64,000 nucleotides of DNA. It comes from Patescibacteria group bacterium (GTDB lineage: Bacteria > Patescibacteriota > Gracilibacteria > UBA1369 > PNNO01). Positions 11-54,383 of the stretch are shown here, piece by piece. Every line of letters begins with the position of its first letter. The first letter of the stretch is position 1. The notes under the pieces are model-generated. The model did no database searches and had not been told where the DNA came from. It saw nothing but the letters and a program-made list of their open reading frames with translations. A program made the position numbers and the translations under genes. The stretch covers positions 17,537 to 81,536 of the forward strand of contig JBHPDK010000001.1 of the NCBI GenBank assembly GCA_042577965.1, read 5' to 3'.

Positions 11-802
11 ATGCAGGAAGAAATAAAAATAATGGATGTTAGATTCAATAATGTCTCTATGGACGAAGCTATAGAGTTCATATTCAGTAATTATAAAAAA
101 GGATATATTTGTACCCCAAATCCAGAAATGCTCCTGGAAGCTCAAAAAAATCCACAATTCTTACAAGTTTTAAATAATTCTCTTCTAAACATTGCAGATG
201 GAATCGGAATTTTATGGGCTGTGACACAAATCCATAATAAAAACTCAAAACTAAAAGGTCTTTTAGAACTGCCATTTATTGCCTTAGCTCCTAATAGATT
301 TAAAAAAGTTTTAAAACAAAGAGTAACCGGAACAGATCTACTTCAAAAAATTTGCCTTAAATGTTCTAAAACTCAAACTAGAGTGTTCTTTTTAGGTGCA
401 GCTGAAGGCATAGCTGAAAAAGCAGCACAAAAGCTTACAAAAACATATCCTGGATTAAAAGTAGCTGGAACTTATGCCGGCTCCCCTGCCCTATCAGAAA
501 AATCTAAAATAATCGAAATGATTAATAAAACAGATGCAGAAATTTTATTCGTTGCATACGGCGCTCCAAAACAGGAAATCTGGATATCAGAAACCATCCA
601 TAAGCTAAACAAAATAAAAATTGCAATTGGAATAGGCGGAGCATTCGACTTTATTGCCGGCAAACGAAAAAGAGCTCCAAAATGGATGCAAAAACTTGGC
701 CTCGAGTGGTTATTTAGGCTAATTCAACAACCATCACGTATAAAAAGAATCTATAACGCAACAGTTAAATTCCCAATTGAAGTAATAAAAACTTTAAAAT
801 AA
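11..802 (+). CDS. WecB/TagA/CpsF-family (GT26) glycosyltransferase
   Basis: ORF 2..802, first in-frame ATG at 11. C-terminal hallmark RAPKWMQKLGLEWLFRLIQQPSRIKR and the central FFLGAAEG...FVAYGAPKQEIW are typical of WecG/TagA enzymes. The start could lie upstream of the window. Confidence 0.8.
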   Translation: MQEEIKIMDVRFNNVSMDEAIEFIFSNYKKGYICTPNPEMLLEAQKNPQFLQVLNNSLLNIADGIGILWAVTQIHNKNSKLKGLLELPFIALAPNRFKKVLKQRVTGTDLLQKICLKCSKTQTRVFFLGAAEGIAEKAAQKLTKTYPGLKVAGTYAGSPALSEKSKIIEMINKTDAEILFVAYGAPKQEIWISETIHKLNKIKIAIGIGGAFDFIAGKRKRAPKWMQKLGLEWLFRLIQQPSRIKRIYNATVKFPIEVIKTLK

Positions 803-1087
803 TTATTTTTTCTTAGATCGTCCCTTTTTTTTCATAACTTCTTCGCCTTTTGCCTGTAGATTTTCAATTATTGGCCTAATGTTCTCTATTACTGAACTTG
901 CTAAAGTTAGAGGTTTGTACATAAATTCATTTACTTTTTCTAAAGTATCACGAGCTAAAAAAGTGGCTTTACTGACATCTCTTAAAACCATAATTAAATA
1001 AACAAGCGCGATAGCAAGTAAAATTCCAATAAGCAAAATTACTGCAGTTATTACGATATAAAACAAGTTTTGAGGATTATCAAACAT
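803..1087 (-). CDS. small membrane protein (N-terminal TM helix plus helical tail, DUF948-like)
   Basis: 94-aa ORF with one hydrophobic helix (FYIVITAVILLIGILLAIALVYLIMVL) and a basic tail. Its stop abuts the stop of the convergent GT26 gene. Confidence 0.5.
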   Translation of the reverse strand: MFDNPQNLFYIVITAVILLIGILLAIALVYLIMVLRDVSKATFLARDTLEKVNEFMYKPLTLASSVIENIRPIIENLQAKGEEVMKKKGRSKKK

Positions 1088-2226: not shown

Positions 2227-3662
2227 GTTAATAACTTTTTCAATATCTCATTCACCATTTGAGGATTCCCCTGCCCTTTTGTTTCTTTCATAACCATTCC
2301 AACTAAAAAGCCGAAAGCTTTGTCTTTGCCATTTTTGAAATCGGAAGCCGGGCCTGGATTCGCATCAATTATTTTTTTGCAAATTTCTTCTAGTTCTCCT
2401 GAATCACTTACAACTTTTAGGCCTTTTTCTTCAACTATTTCAGATGGTGAGCGCCCACTTAAATACATTTCATCAAATACTTCTGCTTTTGCCTGATTAT
2501 TTGAGATTTCGCCTTTTTCAACTAATTTAATAAGCTCGCCCATTATTTTTGGAGTAACTTTGGATTCACGAAGAGGAATTTGATCTTCACGAAGTTTTTT
2601 CATTAAAATCGTATTAATAAATGAAACCGCGAGTTTTGGATTATCAATCATTGAGATAACTTCCTCAAAATACTGAGCAATATATAGATCTTCAGTTAAT
2701 ATGCGGATATCATCGGGCAGAAGGCCGAATTCTTTTTCATAACGTTCGCGTTTTTGAGCTGGCATCTCAGGCACTTTAGCTTTAAGTTCAGCCAGTTTTT
2801 CTTTTGGAGTATGAAGCGGCGGAAGATCAGGCTCAGGAAAATATCTATAATCATCACTCCCCTCTTTTTCACGTAAAGTAAAGGTTTTTTGGGAATCATC
2901 AGCCCATCCCATTGTTAAATCTTTTCGAAGTGGCTCATCATTATTCCAAAGAGTAATTTGACGTTCTATTTCATATAAAATCGCTGAGCCAAGCGATCTA
3001 AAAGAGTTTAAATTTTTAATTTCTGCGCGATTATAAAGCTTATCTTCGCCTTTTGGACGGATAGAAACAGAAGCATCAAACCGCATCATGCCTTTTTCCA
3101 TATCAGCATCACTTGATTCGCAAAATCTTAAAATATTCTGAACTTCTTTTGCATATGCCACTGCTTCTTCTGGTGTATGCATATCAGGTTCGCTCACAAT
3201 TTCCATCAACGGAGTTCCACATCTATTATAATCAACTAACGAGCCACCAGGAACATGTGTTAATTTACCTGCATCATCCTCTAAATGAAGGCGTGTAACT
3301 CTAATTGTTTTCTTTTTTCCTGATTCTAAAGTAATTTCAATTGCTCCTTTTTCAGATAAAGGCTCATCAAACTGAGAAATCTGAAATCCTTTTGGAAGAT
3401 CAGGATAAAAATAATTTTTTCTATCAAATTTACAATACTCAGGGATAGTGCAATTAAGTGCTATGGCAGCAATAGTCCCCTTTTTAACAGCTTCTTTATT
3501 AATAACAGGGAGTTGACCCGGGAAACCCATACAAACCTCGCATACGTTAGAATTTGGCTCTTTATCAAAAGAATCATTGTCACACCTGCAGAACATTTTA
3601 GTTTTAGTATTGATCTGCGCGTGAATTTCTAAACCGATAACTGCTTCAAATTCCTGAGACAT
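2223..3662 (-). CDS. gatB: Asp-tRNA(Asn)/Glu-tRNA(Gln) amidotransferase subunit B
   Basis: GLEIHAQINTKTKMFC, GFPGQLPV, LHLEDDAGK and a C-terminal GatB/YqeY-type tail. 479 aa is the typical length. Confidence 0.95.
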   Translation of the reverse strand: MSQEFEAVIGLEIHAQINTKTKMFCRCDNDSFDKEPNSNVCEVCMGFPGQLPVINKEAVKKGTIAAIALNCTIPEYCKFDRKNYFYPDLPKGFQISQFDEPLSEKGAIEITLESGKKKTIRVTRLHLEDDAGKLTHVPGGSLVDYNRCGTPLMEIVSEPDMHTPEEAVAYAKEVQNILRFCESSDADMEKGMMRFDASVSIRPKGEDKLYNRAEIKNLNSFRSLGSAILYEIERQITLWNNDEPLRKDLTMGWADDSQKTFTLREKEGSDDYRYFPEPDLPPLHTPKEKLAELKAKVPEMPAQKRERYEKEFGLLPDDIRILTEDLYIAQYFEEVISMIDNPKLAVSFINTILMKKLREDQIPLRESKVTPKIMGELIKLVEKGEISNNQAKAEVFDEMYLSGRSPSEIVEEKGLKVVSDSGELEEICKKIIDANPGPASDFKNGKDKAFGFLVGMVMKETKGQGNPQMVNEILKKLLT

Positions 3663-6021: not shown

Positions 6022-6657
6022 TTATTTTTCTTTTTTAGAGAATTTTCTTAATTTACCTTCATCTTCAGCTTCTTTTGGCATTCCATGATTTTGAACATGA
6101 GTAGAAACCATATCTGAAATAAGCTGTTTTAAGACTTCCTGATCTGTAAAATTCTTTTTTGTCATAAATTTATCCTGATATTTAACAACATTCTTTTCAA
6201 TTCTTTTTGGATTACATGCACTTTTTAAAGTGACTGTTGTTGGACCTCCTAATTTTGCCAAAGTAATATTCCCAAAATTAAATATTGTTGGAATAATTCC
6301 TTTAATCTTATAACTCACACCTTCAATTGACTGATACTCTACCCTGTCACTTGTTCTGTCAAAATATCCTGTCCATTCAACACCTACAATTCCCATGTTT
6401 GTAATTAGCCAACAATCATAATACCAATCCTGAATAACCAATAATAATCTAATAACACCTAAAGCTGCCCATCCAAGATAAATCCAAAACATTTGAGGGA
6501 AGAAGAGCCATAATATGAATGGTAAAGCGCCGTGTAGAGTTATTAATCTTCCAAAATCACGTAGCATAATAAAAACATGGCGATGTCCAACAAAAAAGAT
6601 TTCCTCCTCGTCCTCCAGGTAATCCTGATATAAAACTTTGCGTATACTTAATGACAT
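6022..6657 (-). CDS. membrane protein, possibly bacterial PH-domain (YdbS/YdbT-like)
   Basis: Two central TM helices followed by a beta-rich segment. The family assignment is tentative. Confidence 0.55.
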   Translation of the reverse strand: MSLSIRKVLYQDYLEDEEEIFFVGHRHVFIMLRDFGRLITLHGALPFILWLFFPQMFWIYLGWAALGVIRLLLVIQDWYYDCWLITNMGIVGVEWTGYFDRTSDRVEYQSIEGVSYKIKGIIPTIFNFGNITLAKLGGPTTVTLKSACNPKRIEKNVVKYQDKFMTKKNFTDQEVLKQLISDMVSTHVQNHGMPKEAEDEGKLRKFSKKEK

Positions 6658-24703: not shown

Positions 24704-25072
24704 CTAATGTTTAAAAAATAGATTAGTGGCCCAGTTCACGATTCCCAGAACTATGGCAGCAATAATATACGCTCCTAAGCCGGCAAAATAAAGCCGAACA
24801 TCTCTGAATTCCATAACATTAATCACCCATTGGGTTAAAAACAAAATCACAGCATTAATAACAATTAAAAAGAGCCCAGCTGTAATAATCACAAAAGGCA
24901 GGCTTAAAATCTTCATTAAAGGCTTAACAAAAGCGTTTAGTAAACCAATAATAATTCCTCCAATAATAAAAAGTTTGATTCCTCCCTCACCAGTTACTTC
25001 ATTCAAAAACTCAACAACAATGAATAATGTAACAGCATTAAGAAGAATTCCAATTAAGATGCGTTTTACCAT
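24704..25072 (-). CDS. phage-holin-4/DUF360-type membrane protein
   Basis: Four TM helices. FVKPLMKILSLPFVIITAGLFLIVINA is typical of the family. Confidence 0.7.
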   Translation of the reverse strand: MVKRILIGILLNAVTLFIVVEFLNEVTGEGGIKLFIIGGIIIGLLNAFVKPLMKILSLPFVIITAGLFLIVINAVILFLTQWVINVMEFRDVRLYFAGLGAYIIAAIVLGIVNWATNLFFKH

Positions 25073-28100: not shown

Positions 28101-28327
28101 CTTGTAACTGCATCTTTTAAAGCATTAGCAAGAATATGACCATAATGAGGAAGCCCGTTTGCAAACGGAGGCCCATCAAAAAACACATATTTCTTTTCTT
28201 TTTTTCTGCGTGCAACAGACTCTTCAAAAATATGCTGATCTTCCCAGAATTTAAGCATGTTTTGCTCCATTTCAGGGAAGGATTGTTTTGCATCCACATC
28301 TTTAAATGATTTTTTATTTGAATTCAT
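25169..28327 (-). CDS. ileS: isoleucyl-tRNA synthetase (long, type-2-like)
   Basis: PPFANGLPHYGH (HIGH region) and KLSKRKKN (KMSKS region). 1052 aa. Confidence 0.97.
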   Translation of the reverse strand: MNSNKKSFKDVDAKQSFPEMEQNMLKFWEDQHIFEESVARRKKEKKYVFFDGPPFANGLPHYGHILANALKDAVTRYWTMKGYYVPRTNGWDCHGLPVEYEIEKNLEISGRKDIEKFGIENFNEKCRESVFTYTNEWEKLLNRIGRWVDHSETYATLETNYMESIWWVFKQIWDKDMVYQGHKSMHICPRCETPLSNFEVTQGYKDVTDLSIIAKFELKDEPGTYILAWTTTPWTLPGNVALALGPEVKYVKVQAGDDKYILAKDLVEKVMGDSDHKILEDVDPKTLEGKEYKPLFPFYEGKLENKAYVIILEDFVSTEDGTGVVHIAPAFGEDDLNAGQKHGLEVLQHVNGDGTFKDEVEPWAGKFVKGQDQNIADWLEENSLLFTKENYRHSYPHCWRCDTPLLNYSTKAWFIKVTDIKDRLLKNNQKIHWQPEHIKDGRFGKWLEGVRDWNISRNRFWGCPIPIWECEKCEHHKAIGSVEELKKNSLDEKLPQRHGDLDLHIPYINEIKFKCEKCDGTMSRIPEVLDCWFESGSMPYAQLHYPFENKELFEDNFPAQFIAEGLDQTRGWFYTLHVLATILFDKPAFENVIVNGILLAADGEKLSKRKKNFPDPNMLFDTRGVDATRFFMYSSTAPLAEDVRFSEQHVDELIKKFLLTLWNTYSFFVTYANIDNWDPNTVKEGEFKPKHKLDQWILSELHQLIEQCTSHLDDYNLTKGTRPMMDFVDNLSNWYVRRSRRRFWKSENDNDKNEAYATLYIVLKEFTKLIAPFMPFVADEIYRNLTKNDKDSEDSVHLCDWPTSNKKMINKDLNEEIGVVRHVVNLGHGVRAKVQIKVRQPLAKVQIGLPESVNADVVLAQKDVILEELNVKKLEILTEVGEVVQKTIKPDAKKLGPKYGKDVQKIIQDAREGIYKELEDGKVKVGEFILEDEEVEVGFEGKEGFDVQGEAGFVVVLDTKITDDLRYEGYAREIVRFVQDMRKKADYEVYERIYLQVKAQGEVEKAVTQFADYIKRETLAIELQQGSEFSWEKEEKVEIEGQQVVIGVRREE

Positions 28328-28404
28328 GTGAGTGGGATTTTAGTAAATACACACTGCGTACTTAACCATCCGATTCATGCTGCGCATTCATACGCATGTT
28401 TAAG

Positions 28405-28637
28405 CACAAAAAACGCCTTTCTGGGTTCAAGGACGAACTTCTAACTGGTCCGCGGTACCACCTTGATTCCTATAAAAGGCACTTAATTTGATTTTTTACA
28501 ATGTTTTCTCATTGAAGGGTTCTATTTTCGCTAATTTATTGATAGCGATTTCTTCCCTCTGCGTGGCCAATTGGCGCTTAAAAGAGTGATAACTCTTCTA
28601 TATTTCTTACGCATTTACCGTTAGGTGCATTTGCACT
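28405..28637 (-). promoter_or_regulatory. T-box leader (tRNA-sensing riboswitch) of ileS
   Basis: Minus strand reads AATCAAGGTGGTACCGCGGACC (core at 28451-28462), matching the T-box consensus GGTGGTACCGCG. Downstream is a hairpin CG(T)CCTT...AAGGCG plus T6 (28409-28436). AUC codons occur upstream (GAAATCGC, CTATCAA). Confidence 0.8.
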
Positions 28638-28643
28638 CTATGT

Positions 28644-28671
28644 ATTGTAGCACATTTGGCTTAGAATGCAA
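28644..28671 (-). promoter_or_regulatory. promoter of the ileS leader (TTGCAT-16 nt-TACAAT, TG-extended)
   Basis: Minus strand reads TTGCATtctaagccaaatgtgcTACAAT. Confidence 0.5.
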
Positions 28672-28747
28672 TAGGATTTGGAAAAACCAAATAGGTTTAT
28701 TGCTCTCCTGCTTGACAAACTACAATAAAGATGTATTCTTCTAATGG

Positions 28748-28775
28748 AAAAGTATTTTCGCGAGGATACTTTTTT
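28748..28775 (+). terminator. terminator-like hairpin upstream of the GC-rich ORF
   Basis: AAAAGTAT-10 nt-ATACTTTT followed by TTG. There is no upstream plus-strand gene for it to terminate. Confidence 0.3.
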
Positions 28776-28941
28776 GTTCTTTAAAAAATAATCTTCATTT
28801 TTCACAGGGAGTGCTTTGCTATGGACTATCAGTCCAGCTAAAACTGTGGCTGATCTAGCCATAGTGGAGCAGCTCTTTGTGAGCGTGGATGTGATGAAAT
28901 GAACAACAAGCGTCCCAAGAGGACAGGAAGCTGAGGATAGC

Positions 28942-29829
28942 ATGTTTACGAAACTGATGATGTGCGTGGCCGCGATGATGATGGTAGTGAGCCTTCCGCG
29001 AGCAGCTACGGCTACGCCCGCCAAGAAGCCGCTGGAGCTGACGGATATCAGTCTCAAAGGTTTGCCTGCAGCATGGCAGGCGAGGTACCCGAAACTGAAA
29101 GTTCTCAGGGCAAGTCTTCTGGCCCTGAAGAAGCAAGATAGTGCGGCTGAAAAAGAGTTGAACAAGGCCAAGAAGAAGCTTCAGAAGAACGAGTCGAAGG
29201 TCAAGAATCTGAAGTCGGACCTCTACCAGTATACCAACTTGCTGAAGTGCTTGCTGATTCCTCCGAAAATCCGCAAGTGGCATCCCTTCGCCAAGTGCAC
29301 CAAGCGCAAGCTCAACAGGAGCAAAGTCAGAGCGGGGTACCTGATTGGGCAAGAGGTGTACGCGGTCTTTTCCCTGCGAACAGCAACTTCTGACAAGGCA
29401 TTCGCCCAAAAAGCCAAAGTATGGTTCAAGTCAGAAATTACCACGAACCGGAAGGGGATCGCCTACTGGCAGGAGTTCATGCGGGCAGTACAGCAGGAGA
29501 TGAAGCTCATTCAGAAGAATGCGTATGAACTGGACGAGCGGAAAGACAACCTGAAGTATGCAAAGTTGGAGATCAAAACGGCAAAGAAGAAGATCTCCAT
29601 CTGTCTGAAAACTCTCCAGGAGATCAAAAAAAGCATGCCAAAAATCAAGAAGGAGATCAGGCAGGAGCGAAGACGAGTCTTGCTCGCAAAAAAGGTGCGC
29701 AAGCTGATGATGCCGCTCATCAAGCTCGAAGGCGCAAAGCTTCAGGCCACCATGAAAAAAACGCTACGCAGGCTGAAGCCCAAGGTGAGACGCCAGATCC
29801 TCAAGAAGATGCGCGGCTTCGATCCGTAG
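28942..29829 (+). CDS. secreted lysine-rich coiled-coil protein encoded in a GC-rich island
   Basis: 295-aa ORF with GAGGA 4 nt before the ATG. Signal-peptide-like MFTKLMMCVAAMMMVVSLPRAATA. Codon usage is AAG/CTG/GAG-rich, unlike the neighbours. Confidence 0.7.
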   Translation: MFTKLMMCVAAMMMVVSLPRAATATPAKKPLELTDISLKGLPAAWQARYPKLKVLRASLLALKKQDSAAEKELNKAKKKLQKNESKVKNLKSDLYQYTNLLKCLLIPPKIRKWHPFAKCTKRKLNRSKVRAGYLIGQEVYAVFSLRTATSDKAFAQKAKVWFKSEITTNRKGIAYWQEFMRAVQQEMKLIQKNAYELDERKDNLKYAKLEIKTAKKKISICLKTLQEIKKSMPKIKKEIRQERRRVLLAKKVRKLMMPLIKLEGAKLQATMKKTLRRLKPKVRRQILKKMRGFDP

Positions 29830-29925
29830 CATCACACATCCACAAAAGACAGGGTGAAGAAGTTCCGAAAATCAAGTGCAGCAATTGCACATCGATATCG
29901 GACAAAAACTTCTTCGCCCTCCAAC

Positions 29926-31290
29926 CTATTTAAAATCCTCCACCAATTTCTCTGCCATTCCAACGTATTTTTCAGGAGTCAGCTTTTTAAGACGTTCAAT
30001 TTCTCGTTTTGGAAGGCCTGATTTATTTAAAAATTTTGTGATTTCGGTTTTACCAATGGCTTTTCCGCGTGTGAGCTCTTTTAATTTTTCATATGGATTC
30101 TCGAGTTTATATCTTCGCATTACTGTTTGGATTGGCTCAGCCAGAACTTCCCAGGCATTTTTTAAGTCATCTTTTAATGCTTTTAAGTTGATTTGAAGTT
30201 TTCCGAGCCCTTTAATAGTGCTTCTGTATGCGATCATGCTGTATCCAAAAGCCACACCAATATTTCGTTGAACAGTTGAATCAGTGAGGTCGCGTTGCAT
30301 CCTTGCAATTGGTAACTTACTCGAAAAATGTTCAAACATTGCATTTGCCATTCCTAAATTCCCCTCAGAATTTTCAAAATCAATAGGATTCACCTTGTGC
30401 GGCATTGCAGAAGATCCAATCTCACCTTTTTTAGTCGTTTGTTTAAAAAATCCAAGTGAAATATAAGTCCAGATATCGCGGTTAAAATCAAGCAAAATCG
30501 TATTTATTCGTTTCATTGCATCAAAAATCTCAGCCATATAATCATGGCATTCAATTTGAGTTGAATAAGGCGCAAATTCAAGGCCAAGAGATTCAACAAA
30601 CTTTTGATTTACCTGCGGCCAGTCAATTTTAGGATACGCCACGCTGTGAGCGTTATAATTACCTACTGCCCCATTAAATTTTGCACGAATTCTAACTATC
30701 ATTAAAGAACCTAATTGTTTTTTAAGACGATCCACAACATTTATAAACTCTTTACCCATTGTTGTAGGGCTTGCTGGCTGACCATGAGTTCGTGAAAGCA
30801 TTGCAGCACCTTTATATTTACCTGCCAATTCATGCATTTTAGTCATAACACCTGTTAAAAGAGGAACCATTTCATCATCAACAGCAGTCTGAACCATTAA
30901 AGCATAAGCAGTATTGTTGATATCTTCAGAAGTGCATGCAAAATGAATAAACTCAAAATATTTTTCAAGGCCACTGCCCTTCATTGTTTCTTTAATATAA
31001 TATTCAACTGCTTTTACATCATGATTTGTTGTTTTTTCGATATCTTTGATTCTCTGTGCAGCAACAAGATCAAAAGTATTATAAAGTTCTTGTAAATCTT
31101 TAACCTGAAGAGGCGTTAAAACTTTTGTACCAGGCAATTTAAGCTTATTGCAAAGGTAAATAAACCATTCAACTTCAACTACAATTCTGTAGCGTTGAAG
31201 AGCTGCTTCGCTAAAATATCCGCGAAGCTCATCAACTTTGTCAGTATATCTTCCATCAATTGGAGAAAGGGCAAATAATGGGTCTAGCAT
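29926..31290 (-). CDS. purB: adenylosuccinate lyase
   Basis: Signature SSAMPHKVNPIDFEN. 454 aa. Confidence 0.95.
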   Translation of the reverse strand: MLDPLFALSPIDGRYTDKVDELRGYFSEAALQRYRIVVEVEWFIYLCNKLKLPGTKVLTPLQVKDLQELYNTFDLVAAQRIKDIEKTTNHDVKAVEYYIKETMKGSGLEKYFEFIHFACTSEDINNTAYALMVQTAVDDEMVPLLTGVMTKMHELAGKYKGAAMLSRTHGQPASPTTMGKEFINVVDRLKKQLGSLMIVRIRAKFNGAVGNYNAHSVAYPKIDWPQVNQKFVESLGLEFAPYSTQIECHDYMAEIFDAMKRINTILLDFNRDIWTYISLGFFKQTTKKGEIGSSAMPHKVNPIDFENSEGNLGMANAMFEHFSSKLPIARMQRDLTDSTVQRNIGVAFGYSMIAYRSTIKGLGKLQINLKALKDDLKNAWEVLAEPIQTVMRRYKLENPYEKLKELTRGKAIGKTEITKFLNKSGLPKREIERLKKLTPEKYVGMAEKLVEDFK

Positions 31291-51120: not shown

Positions 51121-51244
<124 letters not shown>

Positions 51245-51385
51245 AGCTTTTAATTTTCAAAAATCCAACTAAAACAGTTATTCATACAAATTGCTAGTCA
51301 TTGCAATTAAACAAGTATCGATACTCAGTCTCTTACAAGCATGCGACTAAGCATCAACACCTGAAAAATTGCTAAAGTAAGTTCA

Positions 51386-54383
<2,998 letters not shown>

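Follow-up and report, generated by a model that had tools for sequence, protein, structure and literature searches.

A stretch of 64,000 nucleotides (nt) of contig JBHPDK010000001.1, from a Patescibacteria group bacterium and referred to here as the window, contains a GC-rich cassette between the genes ileS and purB. All coordinates given are positions in this 64-kb window, which as a whole has a guanine plus cytosine (GC) content of 34.9%. The closest purB relatives in GTDB (73%–87% identity) are Peregrinibacteria/Peribacteria and other metagenome-assembled genomes of Patescibacteria; the bacterium is a tiny, uncultured member of Peregrinibacteria. By its GC profile the cassette occupies positions 28685–29925 (+ strand), from the ileS promoter region to the purB stop codon. 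It displays an open reading frame (ORF) at positions 28942–29829 (+) that encodes a predicted 295 amino acid (aa) polycationic coiled-coil protein without known relatives outside a single ortholog. Upstream of the ORF are a promoter, a long leader hairpin and a Shine-Dalgarno sequence, and downstream there is a second hairpin.

The cassette has a GC content of approximately 50%, compared with 35% for the window. Measured over 200 nt at a time, the GC fraction rises from 0.32–0.38 to 0.45–0.56 over about positions 28800–29900 and is 0.35–0.40 inside purB (0.30–0.40 on both sides of the cassette). Measured over 300 nt, the 23S rRNA is the only other part of the 64 kb where a GC fraction of at least 0.44 is sustained over more than a few hundred bases; all further peaks extend over only a few measuring intervals and are found at tRNA genes or within ordinary genes. 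The excess is almost wholly at third codon positions. The GC fractions at the first, second and third codon positions (GC3) of the ORF are 0.48, 0.34 and 0.72, whereas GC3 is 0.15–0.32 in all other real ORFs of at least 150 aa in the window, and 0.20–0.26 in ileS, purB, purE, purC and purA. The exceptions are one spurious ORF within the 23S rRNA and, in the island itself, two ORFs on the antisense strand. Codon choice follows the same pattern: AAG is used 37 times vs. 18 for AAA, CTG (16) and CTC (10) are used vs. none for TTA, and ATC accounts for 11 of 15, where the background fractions for AAG, CTG plus CTC, and ATC are 0.19, 0.09 and 0.10, respectively. The composition and codon usage of the cassette are thus sharply unlike those of its host. 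An earlier assessment of this DNA made from the letters alone (the sequence-only reading) had described a GC-rich island of foreign codon usage between ileS and purB; the GC profile, the GC3 values and the identified flanking genes bear this out, its hand counts of G+C (39/60, 28/60 and 20/60) are exact, and all the features it named were found at the positions it gave.

Among about 15 billion proteins, the only relative of the window protein (P0001) is P0002, a protein of 300 aa with 47% identity. Proteins were searched by word index in 5.8 billion clusters and, with an exhaustive profile comparison, in 1.8 billion cluster representatives. P0002 is present in five independently assembled contigs from different samples, and in all five it converges on purB-purE-purC with purA beyond. 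The PurB next to P0002 is 83% identical to the window PurB. Similarity between the two loci starts at the −35 box and extends through the terminator stem, and the cassette copies sit 4–8 nt from the purB stop codon in both lineages. The ortholog ORF likewise displays a raised GC fraction (0.43–0.51 vs. 0.29–0.39 nearby), with a GC3 of 0.52. No homolog was found in GTDB genomes or IMG/VR with back-translated patterns, or in phages or plasmids with tblastn. The window protein has no significant match in Pfam, PHROGs, NCBIfam, PADLOC or PDB sequences, and a Foldseek search of PDB and viral structures gave generic coiled coils only, with expectation values (E-values) of 0.004 or worse; the sequence-only reading had also recognized no motif. 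By these comparisons the protein is a lineage-restricted orphan and represents a new family with two known members.

Identity between the window ORF and the ortholog is 0.63, 0.65 and 0.47 at the first, second and third codon positions, and the insertions and deletions are in multiples of three. The nonsynonymous divergence (dN) of the ORF is 0.44 and the synonymous divergence (dS) is about 2.4, which is saturated; the pur genes have a dN of 0.09–0.19 and a dS of 0.9–1.4. The two antisense ORFs (177 and 184 aa) have no conserved counterpart in the ortholog. The cassette ORF is a real gene, as indicated by the codon-position pattern, the in-frame insertions and deletions, a dN/dS ratio below 1 and the lack of conservation of the antisense ORFs. 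By these rates, the gene is under purifying selection while evolving approximately four times faster than its neighbors.

The N-terminal region, MFTKLMMCVAAMMMVVSLPRAATA (28942–29013, +), is signal-peptide-like and contains the hydropathy maximum, at residues 5–19. A lysine at position 4 is followed by a 14-residue hydrophobic region (L5–L18), a proline at position 19 (−6 relative to the putative cleavage site) and A22-T23-A24, which places alanine at −3 and −1. The pattern is a hydrophobic stretch and then P-x-A-A-T-A, and the ortholog keeps the same layout of n-, h- and c-regions (SLPTQAAAA) though the residues differ. Judged by rule, this is the tripartite arrangement with small residues at −3 and −1 that is typical of Sec substrates cleaved by signal peptidase I. 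The protein is probably exported by a Sec-type signal peptide.

The mature part of the protein is 20% lysine and 7% arginine with an isoelectric point of 10.5, and the whole protein is 19% lysine. The net charge is +52, and that of the ortholog is +50. AlphaFold2 models of both orthologs display long helices at residues 43–105 and 194–276 with a confidence score (pLDDT) of 70–91; the mean pLDDT is 58–59, and the helical region between the long helices is of low confidence and holds two conserved cysteines. Heptad positions a and d are 83% and 70% hydrophobic, compared with about 40% overall. Long helices with hydrophobic a and d positions are characteristic of coiled coils, and the two helices probably form an antiparallel coiled coil around a middle domain, as modeled. 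The signal-peptide-like N-terminus and the lysine-rich, heptad-like sequence reported in the sequence-only reading are thus both recovered. Residues 205–279 give matches to ribosomal protein S15 which are below threshold (TIGR00952, 14.7 bits vs. a cut-off of 63.65; S15 chains in PDB, E-values 0.09–0.3), and no significant profile match to an S15-like RNA-binding protein was obtained.

A predicted sigma-70-type promoter, TTGACA-16 nt-TATTCT, is at positions 28712–28739 (+) and is the sole promoter-like site in a scan of positions 28300–30100. The counterpart in the ortholog, TTGACG-17 nt-TATAAT, has a TG upstream, and the position is conserved in the alignment with ortholog contig L004. The predicted 5′ untranslated region (5′ UTR) is about 195 nt long. 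Immediately after the −10 box, at the 5′ end of the predicted transcript, the sequence folds into an AU-rich 13-bp hairpin followed by a run of U (28746–28775, +). A hairpin upstream of the ORF, at 28748–28775, had been noticed before; it exists but is specific to the window, an insertion relative to L001, L003 and L004 with no counterpart in the ortholog. A role as attenuator or as 5′ cap-like stabilizer is possible. It could also terminate transcription prematurely or damp expression, and the window −10 box TATTCT is also weaker than the TATAAT of the ortholog. Next is a conserved A/U- and pyrimidine-rich stretch, GUUCUUUAAAAAAUAAUC, at positions 28776–28793 (+), about 83% identical to the ortholog. 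Pairing of a CUCUUU sequence of this tract with the Shine-Dalgarno sequence, which would sequester the latter, is predicted in the ortholog (p of about 0.7) but not in the window. The Shine-Dalgarno sequence itself, GAGGA (28933–28937, +), is 4 nt upstream of the ATG; the ortholog has AAGGAGGA. The promoter, leader, Shine-Dalgarno sequence, ORF and 3′ hairpin make up a complete predicted transcription unit. A leader peptide was considered and rejected, as the two species show no conservation of the short leader ORFs.

The main element of the leader is a hairpin of 96 nt and 41 bp at positions 28794–28889 (+), found by folding and by comparison with the ortholog, and absent from the sequence-only reading. 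Its minimum free energy (MFE) is −48.3 kcal/mol (z = −6.8) and that of the antisense strand is −31.3; in the ortholog the values are −44.5 (z = −6.8) and −22.8. The sense hairpin is more stable than the antisense by 17–22 kcal/mol because of 8–9 G-U pairs. The 41 pairs comprise 36 that are invariant, four with wobble changes and one with a compensatory change (C-G to U-A), and none is broken. All six substitutions in the stem retain pairing, and the remaining differences in the hairpin are in the bulge and the loop. In the 130-nt leader alignment that contains the hairpin, columns are 91% identical on average, and the BLASTN match covers 126 nt at 89%. Leader identity at the nt level is therefore about 90%, compared with 47% for the ORF at the protein level and saturation at its synonymous sites. 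On this comparison the predicted leader hairpin is the most constrained feature of the locus. Its stability, strand asymmetry and conservation, with no pair-breaking change, suggest that it is probably functional and acts in the RNA of the + strand.

The leader (28776–28905, +) has no Rfam match at E-values up to 10. The hairpin is a single unbranched helix and therefore offers no multi-stem ligand pocket of the type seen in riboswitches. No second copy was detected by BLASTN or with a covariance model in 194 kb of Peregrinibacteria DNA. Pattern scans of GTDB, JGI metagenomes and IMG/VR with 16–18-mers from the hairpin arms gave counts at chance level, and none of the hits was longer than 25 nt or matched the covariance model. 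RNase III needs roughly 20 bp of double-stranded RNA, and the 41 bp of near-continuous sense-strand duplex in the 5′ UTR exceed this length, as would be expected of an RNase III substrate or a 5′ stabilizer.

Between the ORF and the convergent purB is a long nested hairpin at positions 29851–29920, with MFE values of −32.4 (+) and −33.2 (−) kcal/mol and z values of −7.7 and −6.4. The ortholog has a conserved version of its outer stem, AACTTCTTCGCCC, in which the changes preserve pairing. A T-rich tail is found on the purB (−) strand only, and the cassette thus appears to supply the purB terminator. At the opposite border, homology to the empty slot of a relative (L007) ends at about position 28682, just beyond the ileS promoter.

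The purB-ileS slot is variable among relatives. In L007 it holds nothing but about 100 nt and the ileS T-box leader; in L006 and the more distant L017 it holds a GNAT acetyltransferase gene; in L008 it is occupied by three ORFs that are unrelated, one of them weakly similar to Pfam HD domains at a sub-threshold score; and in the window the slot is filled by the GC-rich cassette. The GNAT gene is directly after purB, at positions 6366–6854 of L006 and 6374–6889 of L017. The GNAT gene is probably the ancestral occupant, later lost from, or displaced in, the window, L007 and L008. In a tree of concatenated PurC, PurE, PurB and PurA, the ortholog lineage L001 is sister to L008 (94% aa identity) and the window groups with L006 (88%). 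The cassette is carried by the window and L001 only, though L008 is the sister of L001. Over its C-terminal end, purB of the window resembles L001 no more closely than it does L006 or L007, and no recombination tract is thus indicated there. The presence/absence polymorphism that the sequence-only reading had proposed to look for at the ileS-purB junction is therefore present at a syntenic site.

The gene 5′ of P0002 is not ileS but a 279-aa HNH-like gene with native codons (GC3 of 0.28). Paralogs with 43% identity are found between purA and purC in L006 and L008. Members of this family, of about 280–315 aa, are at positions 16–855 (+) of L004, 2448–3392 (−) of L006 and approximately 2466–3215 (−) of L008, and have no match in Pfam or NCBIfam. 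Their intergenic locations around the pur cluster differ from one relative to the next, and at these sites the window has no member of the family. Every ortholog contig breaks at this gene, hence it is probably multi-copy, and it is probably mobile as well.

The sequence-only reading had noted a 9-nt inverted repeat bracketing the segment. The repeat is present as described: its left arm is AAATAGGTT (28689–28697) and its right arm is AACCTATTT (29923–29931), which overlaps the purB stop codon (29926–29928) and is constrained by the coding end of purB. Shuffled sequences contain an inverted repeat of at least 9 nt in 1.4% of cases, and equally spaced pairs of zones in the window do so in 4%. 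Because the repeat is at chance level and missing in the ortholog, it is not evidence of a mobile element and is not counted as a part of the cassette. The absence of mobility genes is confirmed, none being present at the borders.

The reading preferred here, with a probability of about 0.55, is that this is a genuine accessory gene cassette which resides in a variable slot, was acquired horizontally, and comprises a hairpin-led leader and an exported polycation. Horizontal entry from a more GC-rich source, considered by itself, is modestly favored because of the foreign composition, the patchy distribution and the likely ancestral GNAT occupant. A two-state GC/AT decay model bears on the age of the cassette. 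The model was calibrated on 1053 conserved pur codons and has an equilibrium GC3 of 0.19 and a per-lineage decay factor of 0.45 since the split of the window and L001. Under it, a neutral relic of the common ancestor would now have a GC3 of at most 0.555, even starting from 100% GC3. The ortholog (0.48–0.52) is within this limit and the window copy (0.71–0.72) is above it; neutral decay thus cannot explain the window gene if it is ancestral. The recent horizontal acquisition put forward in the sequence-only reading therefore survives in part. A foreign insert, the presence/absence polymorphism and a GC3 too high for a neutral relic all agree with it, but no donor was found, and “recent” is not supported because there is a 47%-identical ortholog with raised GC3 at the same place and with saturated synonymous divergence similar to that of the pur genes. 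It had also been stated that a low-GC relative carrying the same gene as an ancient resident would speak against recent acquisition, and the ortholog in another low-GC lineage goes part of the way toward this.

Several observations weigh against the preferred reading. The residual same-codon excess is 0.14 for the two copies, as compared with 0.12–0.26 for the pur genes, and the copies may have separated at about the same time as their hosts, or within a reservoir of comparable depth. Their shared position and pur-like divergence would fit vertical descent with losses as well as two gains. The window, L006, L007 and the pair L001 and L008 form a near-polytomy in the tree, with dN values of 0.08–0.11. 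No donor was found among protein clusters, GTDB, IMG/VR, phages or plasmids, and the borders display no mobility gene, tRNA or direct repeat. As to export, the signal peptide is a pattern read by eye, and lysines at +4 and +5, along with an overall charge (+52) that is out of the ordinary among Sec substrates, are unfavorable for Sec; the effector role proposed in the sequence-only reading is putative. Support for the hairpin comes from two sequences with a single compensatory change, a number at which covariation statistics have no power.

The points on vertical descent lead to an alternative in which the cassette was an ancient resident of the common ancestor of the five species, was lost three times, and kept its GC-rich codons by selection. 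A GC-rich mRNA might be kept for its structure, for resistance to AU-directed RNases, for avoidance of poly-A tracts (the protein being 19% lysine) or for slow translation, and the 5′ hairpin would be a part of the same RNA-level design. Both copies have the same position and architecture, their synonymous divergence is comparable to that of the pur genes, and both keep a raised GC3 (0.72 and 0.52) despite the predicted decay. In addition, the two ORFs fold more stably than synonymous-codon shuffles when analyzed in windows (z = −2.0 and −4.0, compared with +0.3 for purB and +0.5 for purA). However these z-scores are modest and come from overlapping windows, and the GC3 values of the two copies are very different. 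The history would also require at least three independent losses and coexistence of the cassette with the apparently ancestral GNAT gene, and avoidance of poly-A leaves the preferences for CTG, ATC, ACG and CCG unexplained. Ancient residence is regarded as possible but unlikely. A related proposal, which is quite doubtful, is that the GC-rich codons are held by selection on the RNA, i.e. a stable structured mRNA whose hairpin is recognized by a dedicated factor, possibly its own polycationic product.

The charge of the protein suggests a different alternative, in which the N-terminus is not cleaved but anchors a cytoplasmic cationic coiled coil to the membrane, where it would bind nucleic acid and possibly the double-stranded RNA of its own leader, a form of autoregulation. 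By the positive-inside rule the bulk of a membrane-anchored protein with a net charge of +52, and with lysine and arginine right after the hydrophobic segment, would be in the cytoplasm. The repeated though weak and sub-threshold S15 matches at residues 205–279, and conservation of the leader hairpin in sequence as well as structure, are in the same direction. The 14-residue hydrophobic core is however short for a transmembrane helix and is followed by a conserved P...A-x-A motif of the signal peptidase type, and S15 E-values of 0.03–0.3 are adequately explained by helices rich in lysine and arginine; a membrane anchor is therefore held to be improbable. An assembly chimera, or a non-coding structured RNA with a chance open frame, is very unlikely. 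The exact window protein is on one contig only and a GC content of about 50% equals that of the rRNA of this genome, but the same cassette-purB junction recurs in five ortholog assemblies, the flanking synteny is intact with the purB...ileS order of relatives, the third codon position is the least conserved, insertions and deletions are in frame, the signal peptide is conserved and there is no match in Rfam. The assembly artefact that the sequence-only reading had left as an option is thus not sustained. Hardly any credence is given to a transposable element such as a miniature inverted-repeat transposable element (MITE) bounded by the 9-nt repeat, or to an integron-type cassette with the hairpin as recombination site. 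The repeat at the borders, the long strand-specific hairpin and the HNH-like gene beside the ortholog copy would suit such elements. Against a MITE or insertion sequence, the repeat is at the level of chance and the ortholog lacks it, the borders carry no target-site duplication, and there is no transposase or integrase and no further hairpin copy by BLASTN, covariance model or the collection scans (194 kb of Peregrinibacteria DNA; GTDB, JGI and IMG/VR). Against an integron attC site, the hairpin is 5′ of the ORF, between promoter and Shine-Dalgarno sequence, and not 3′ of it, there are no GTTRRRY core sites, and no integrase or cassette array is found in the 64-kb window. The HNH gene, for its part, has native codons and paralogs elsewhere.

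With respect to known systems, the cassette belongs to the category of compositional islets in variable slots. It resembles horizontally acquired ORFan islets, as described in the amelioration framework of Lawrence and Ochman, in its abrupt break in GC and codon usage, its intergenic slot between housekeeping genes, its patchy distribution among close relatives and its lack of detectable homologs. Unlike typical islets, it has no tRNA, integrase, repeats or donor, and the direction is reversed, i.e. GC-rich DNA in an AT-rich genome. It also differs in having a second, highly diverged copy at the same site and a GC3 above that of neutral amelioration if ancestral. What sets it apart from ordinary islets is how large and persistent the codon anomaly is, and that the leader is conserved far better than the gene.

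The leader resembles ompA-type stabilizers, the leaders of S-layer genes and the RNase III-processed leaders of rnc and pnp in having a long stable hairpin between promoter and ribosome-binding site, here with a probably exported product. Unlike these, the cassette hairpin is conserved in sequence too (about 90%) and matches no Rfam family, and it is a candidate member of these classes. The protein resembles extracytoplasmic coiled-coil proteins (Skp/OmpH; the coiled-coil arms of EnvC, PcsB and RipA) and antiparallel coiled coils of the SMC type in its predicted long antiparallel helices, its basic character and its signal-peptide-like N-terminus. However the cassette protein has no catalytic or partner domain and its charge of +52 is far beyond theirs. 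Ribosomal protein S15 binds RNA and regulates its own synthesis, and S15 with its autoregulated leader is a comparable pairing of a basic helical protein with a structured 5′ leader; the cassette protein differs in its signal-peptide-like N-terminus, in being three times longer, and in that its S15 matches are not significant.

Under the preferred reading, the cassette would have entered the slot horizontally from a more GC-rich source. The leader hairpin would probably act on the mRNA, as a 5′ stabilizer or as an RNase III-type processing or control element that sets the amount of protein. The exported polycation would then probably bind polyanionic surfaces, whether the cell’s own wall polymers, the envelope of a host cell or extracellular DNA, which is speculative.

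Several features of the flanking region and the rest of the window are of separate interest. A T-box leader precedes ileS at positions 28426–28615 (−) and displays the canonical AAGGUGGUACCGCG motif and a terminator. Its score against Rfam is 36.6 bits (E-value = 4.6e-6), and since the gathering score is 93, standard annotation would miss it; the element, as predicted, is a divergent T-box of the Candidate Phyla Radiation (CPR), below the reach of standard annotation. An ileS promoter, TTGCAT-16 nt-TGCTACAAT, was read by eye at about positions 28672 to 28645 (−), approximately 40 nt from the divergent promoter of the cassette. Directly after ileS is a 122-aa holin-like gene with four transmembrane segments (PF04020, E-value = 1e-19) at positions 24704–25072 (−). 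It has the same position in L006 and L007 and thus belongs to the resident genes, not to a prophage. The 23S and 5S rRNA genes are adjacent, at positions 51125–54381 (−), and no 16S gene was found in the 64-kb window (Rfam, gathering threshold); the rRNA operon is thus unlinked.

What appears new here, from sequence comparison, is an orphan protein family with two members together with a conserved leader hairpin. The finding rests on two lineages, and its wider importance is uncertain. A life attached to other microbes is assumed for members of the CPR/Patescibacteria, and the accessory genes that mediate attachment are almost all orphans. The cassette is a compact and clearly bounded example, with an orphan, probably exported and extremely cationic protein and a leader RNA whose conservation far exceeds that of the protein. 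The cassette also raises an evolutionary question, as a GC3 of 0.72 in a genome of about 0.2 exceeds neutral decay if the age of the gene is that suggested by its synonymous divergence. Whether the explanation is repeated transfer from a hidden GC-rich reservoir or selection on the mRNA bears on the detection of transfer by composition in reduced, AT-rich genomes. In an extreme version of selection on the RNA, the message would be tuned for expression in, or delivery to, the GC-richer host of the episymbiont. If true, selection on the RNA in either version would represent a new CPR-specific RNA-protein regulatory pair.

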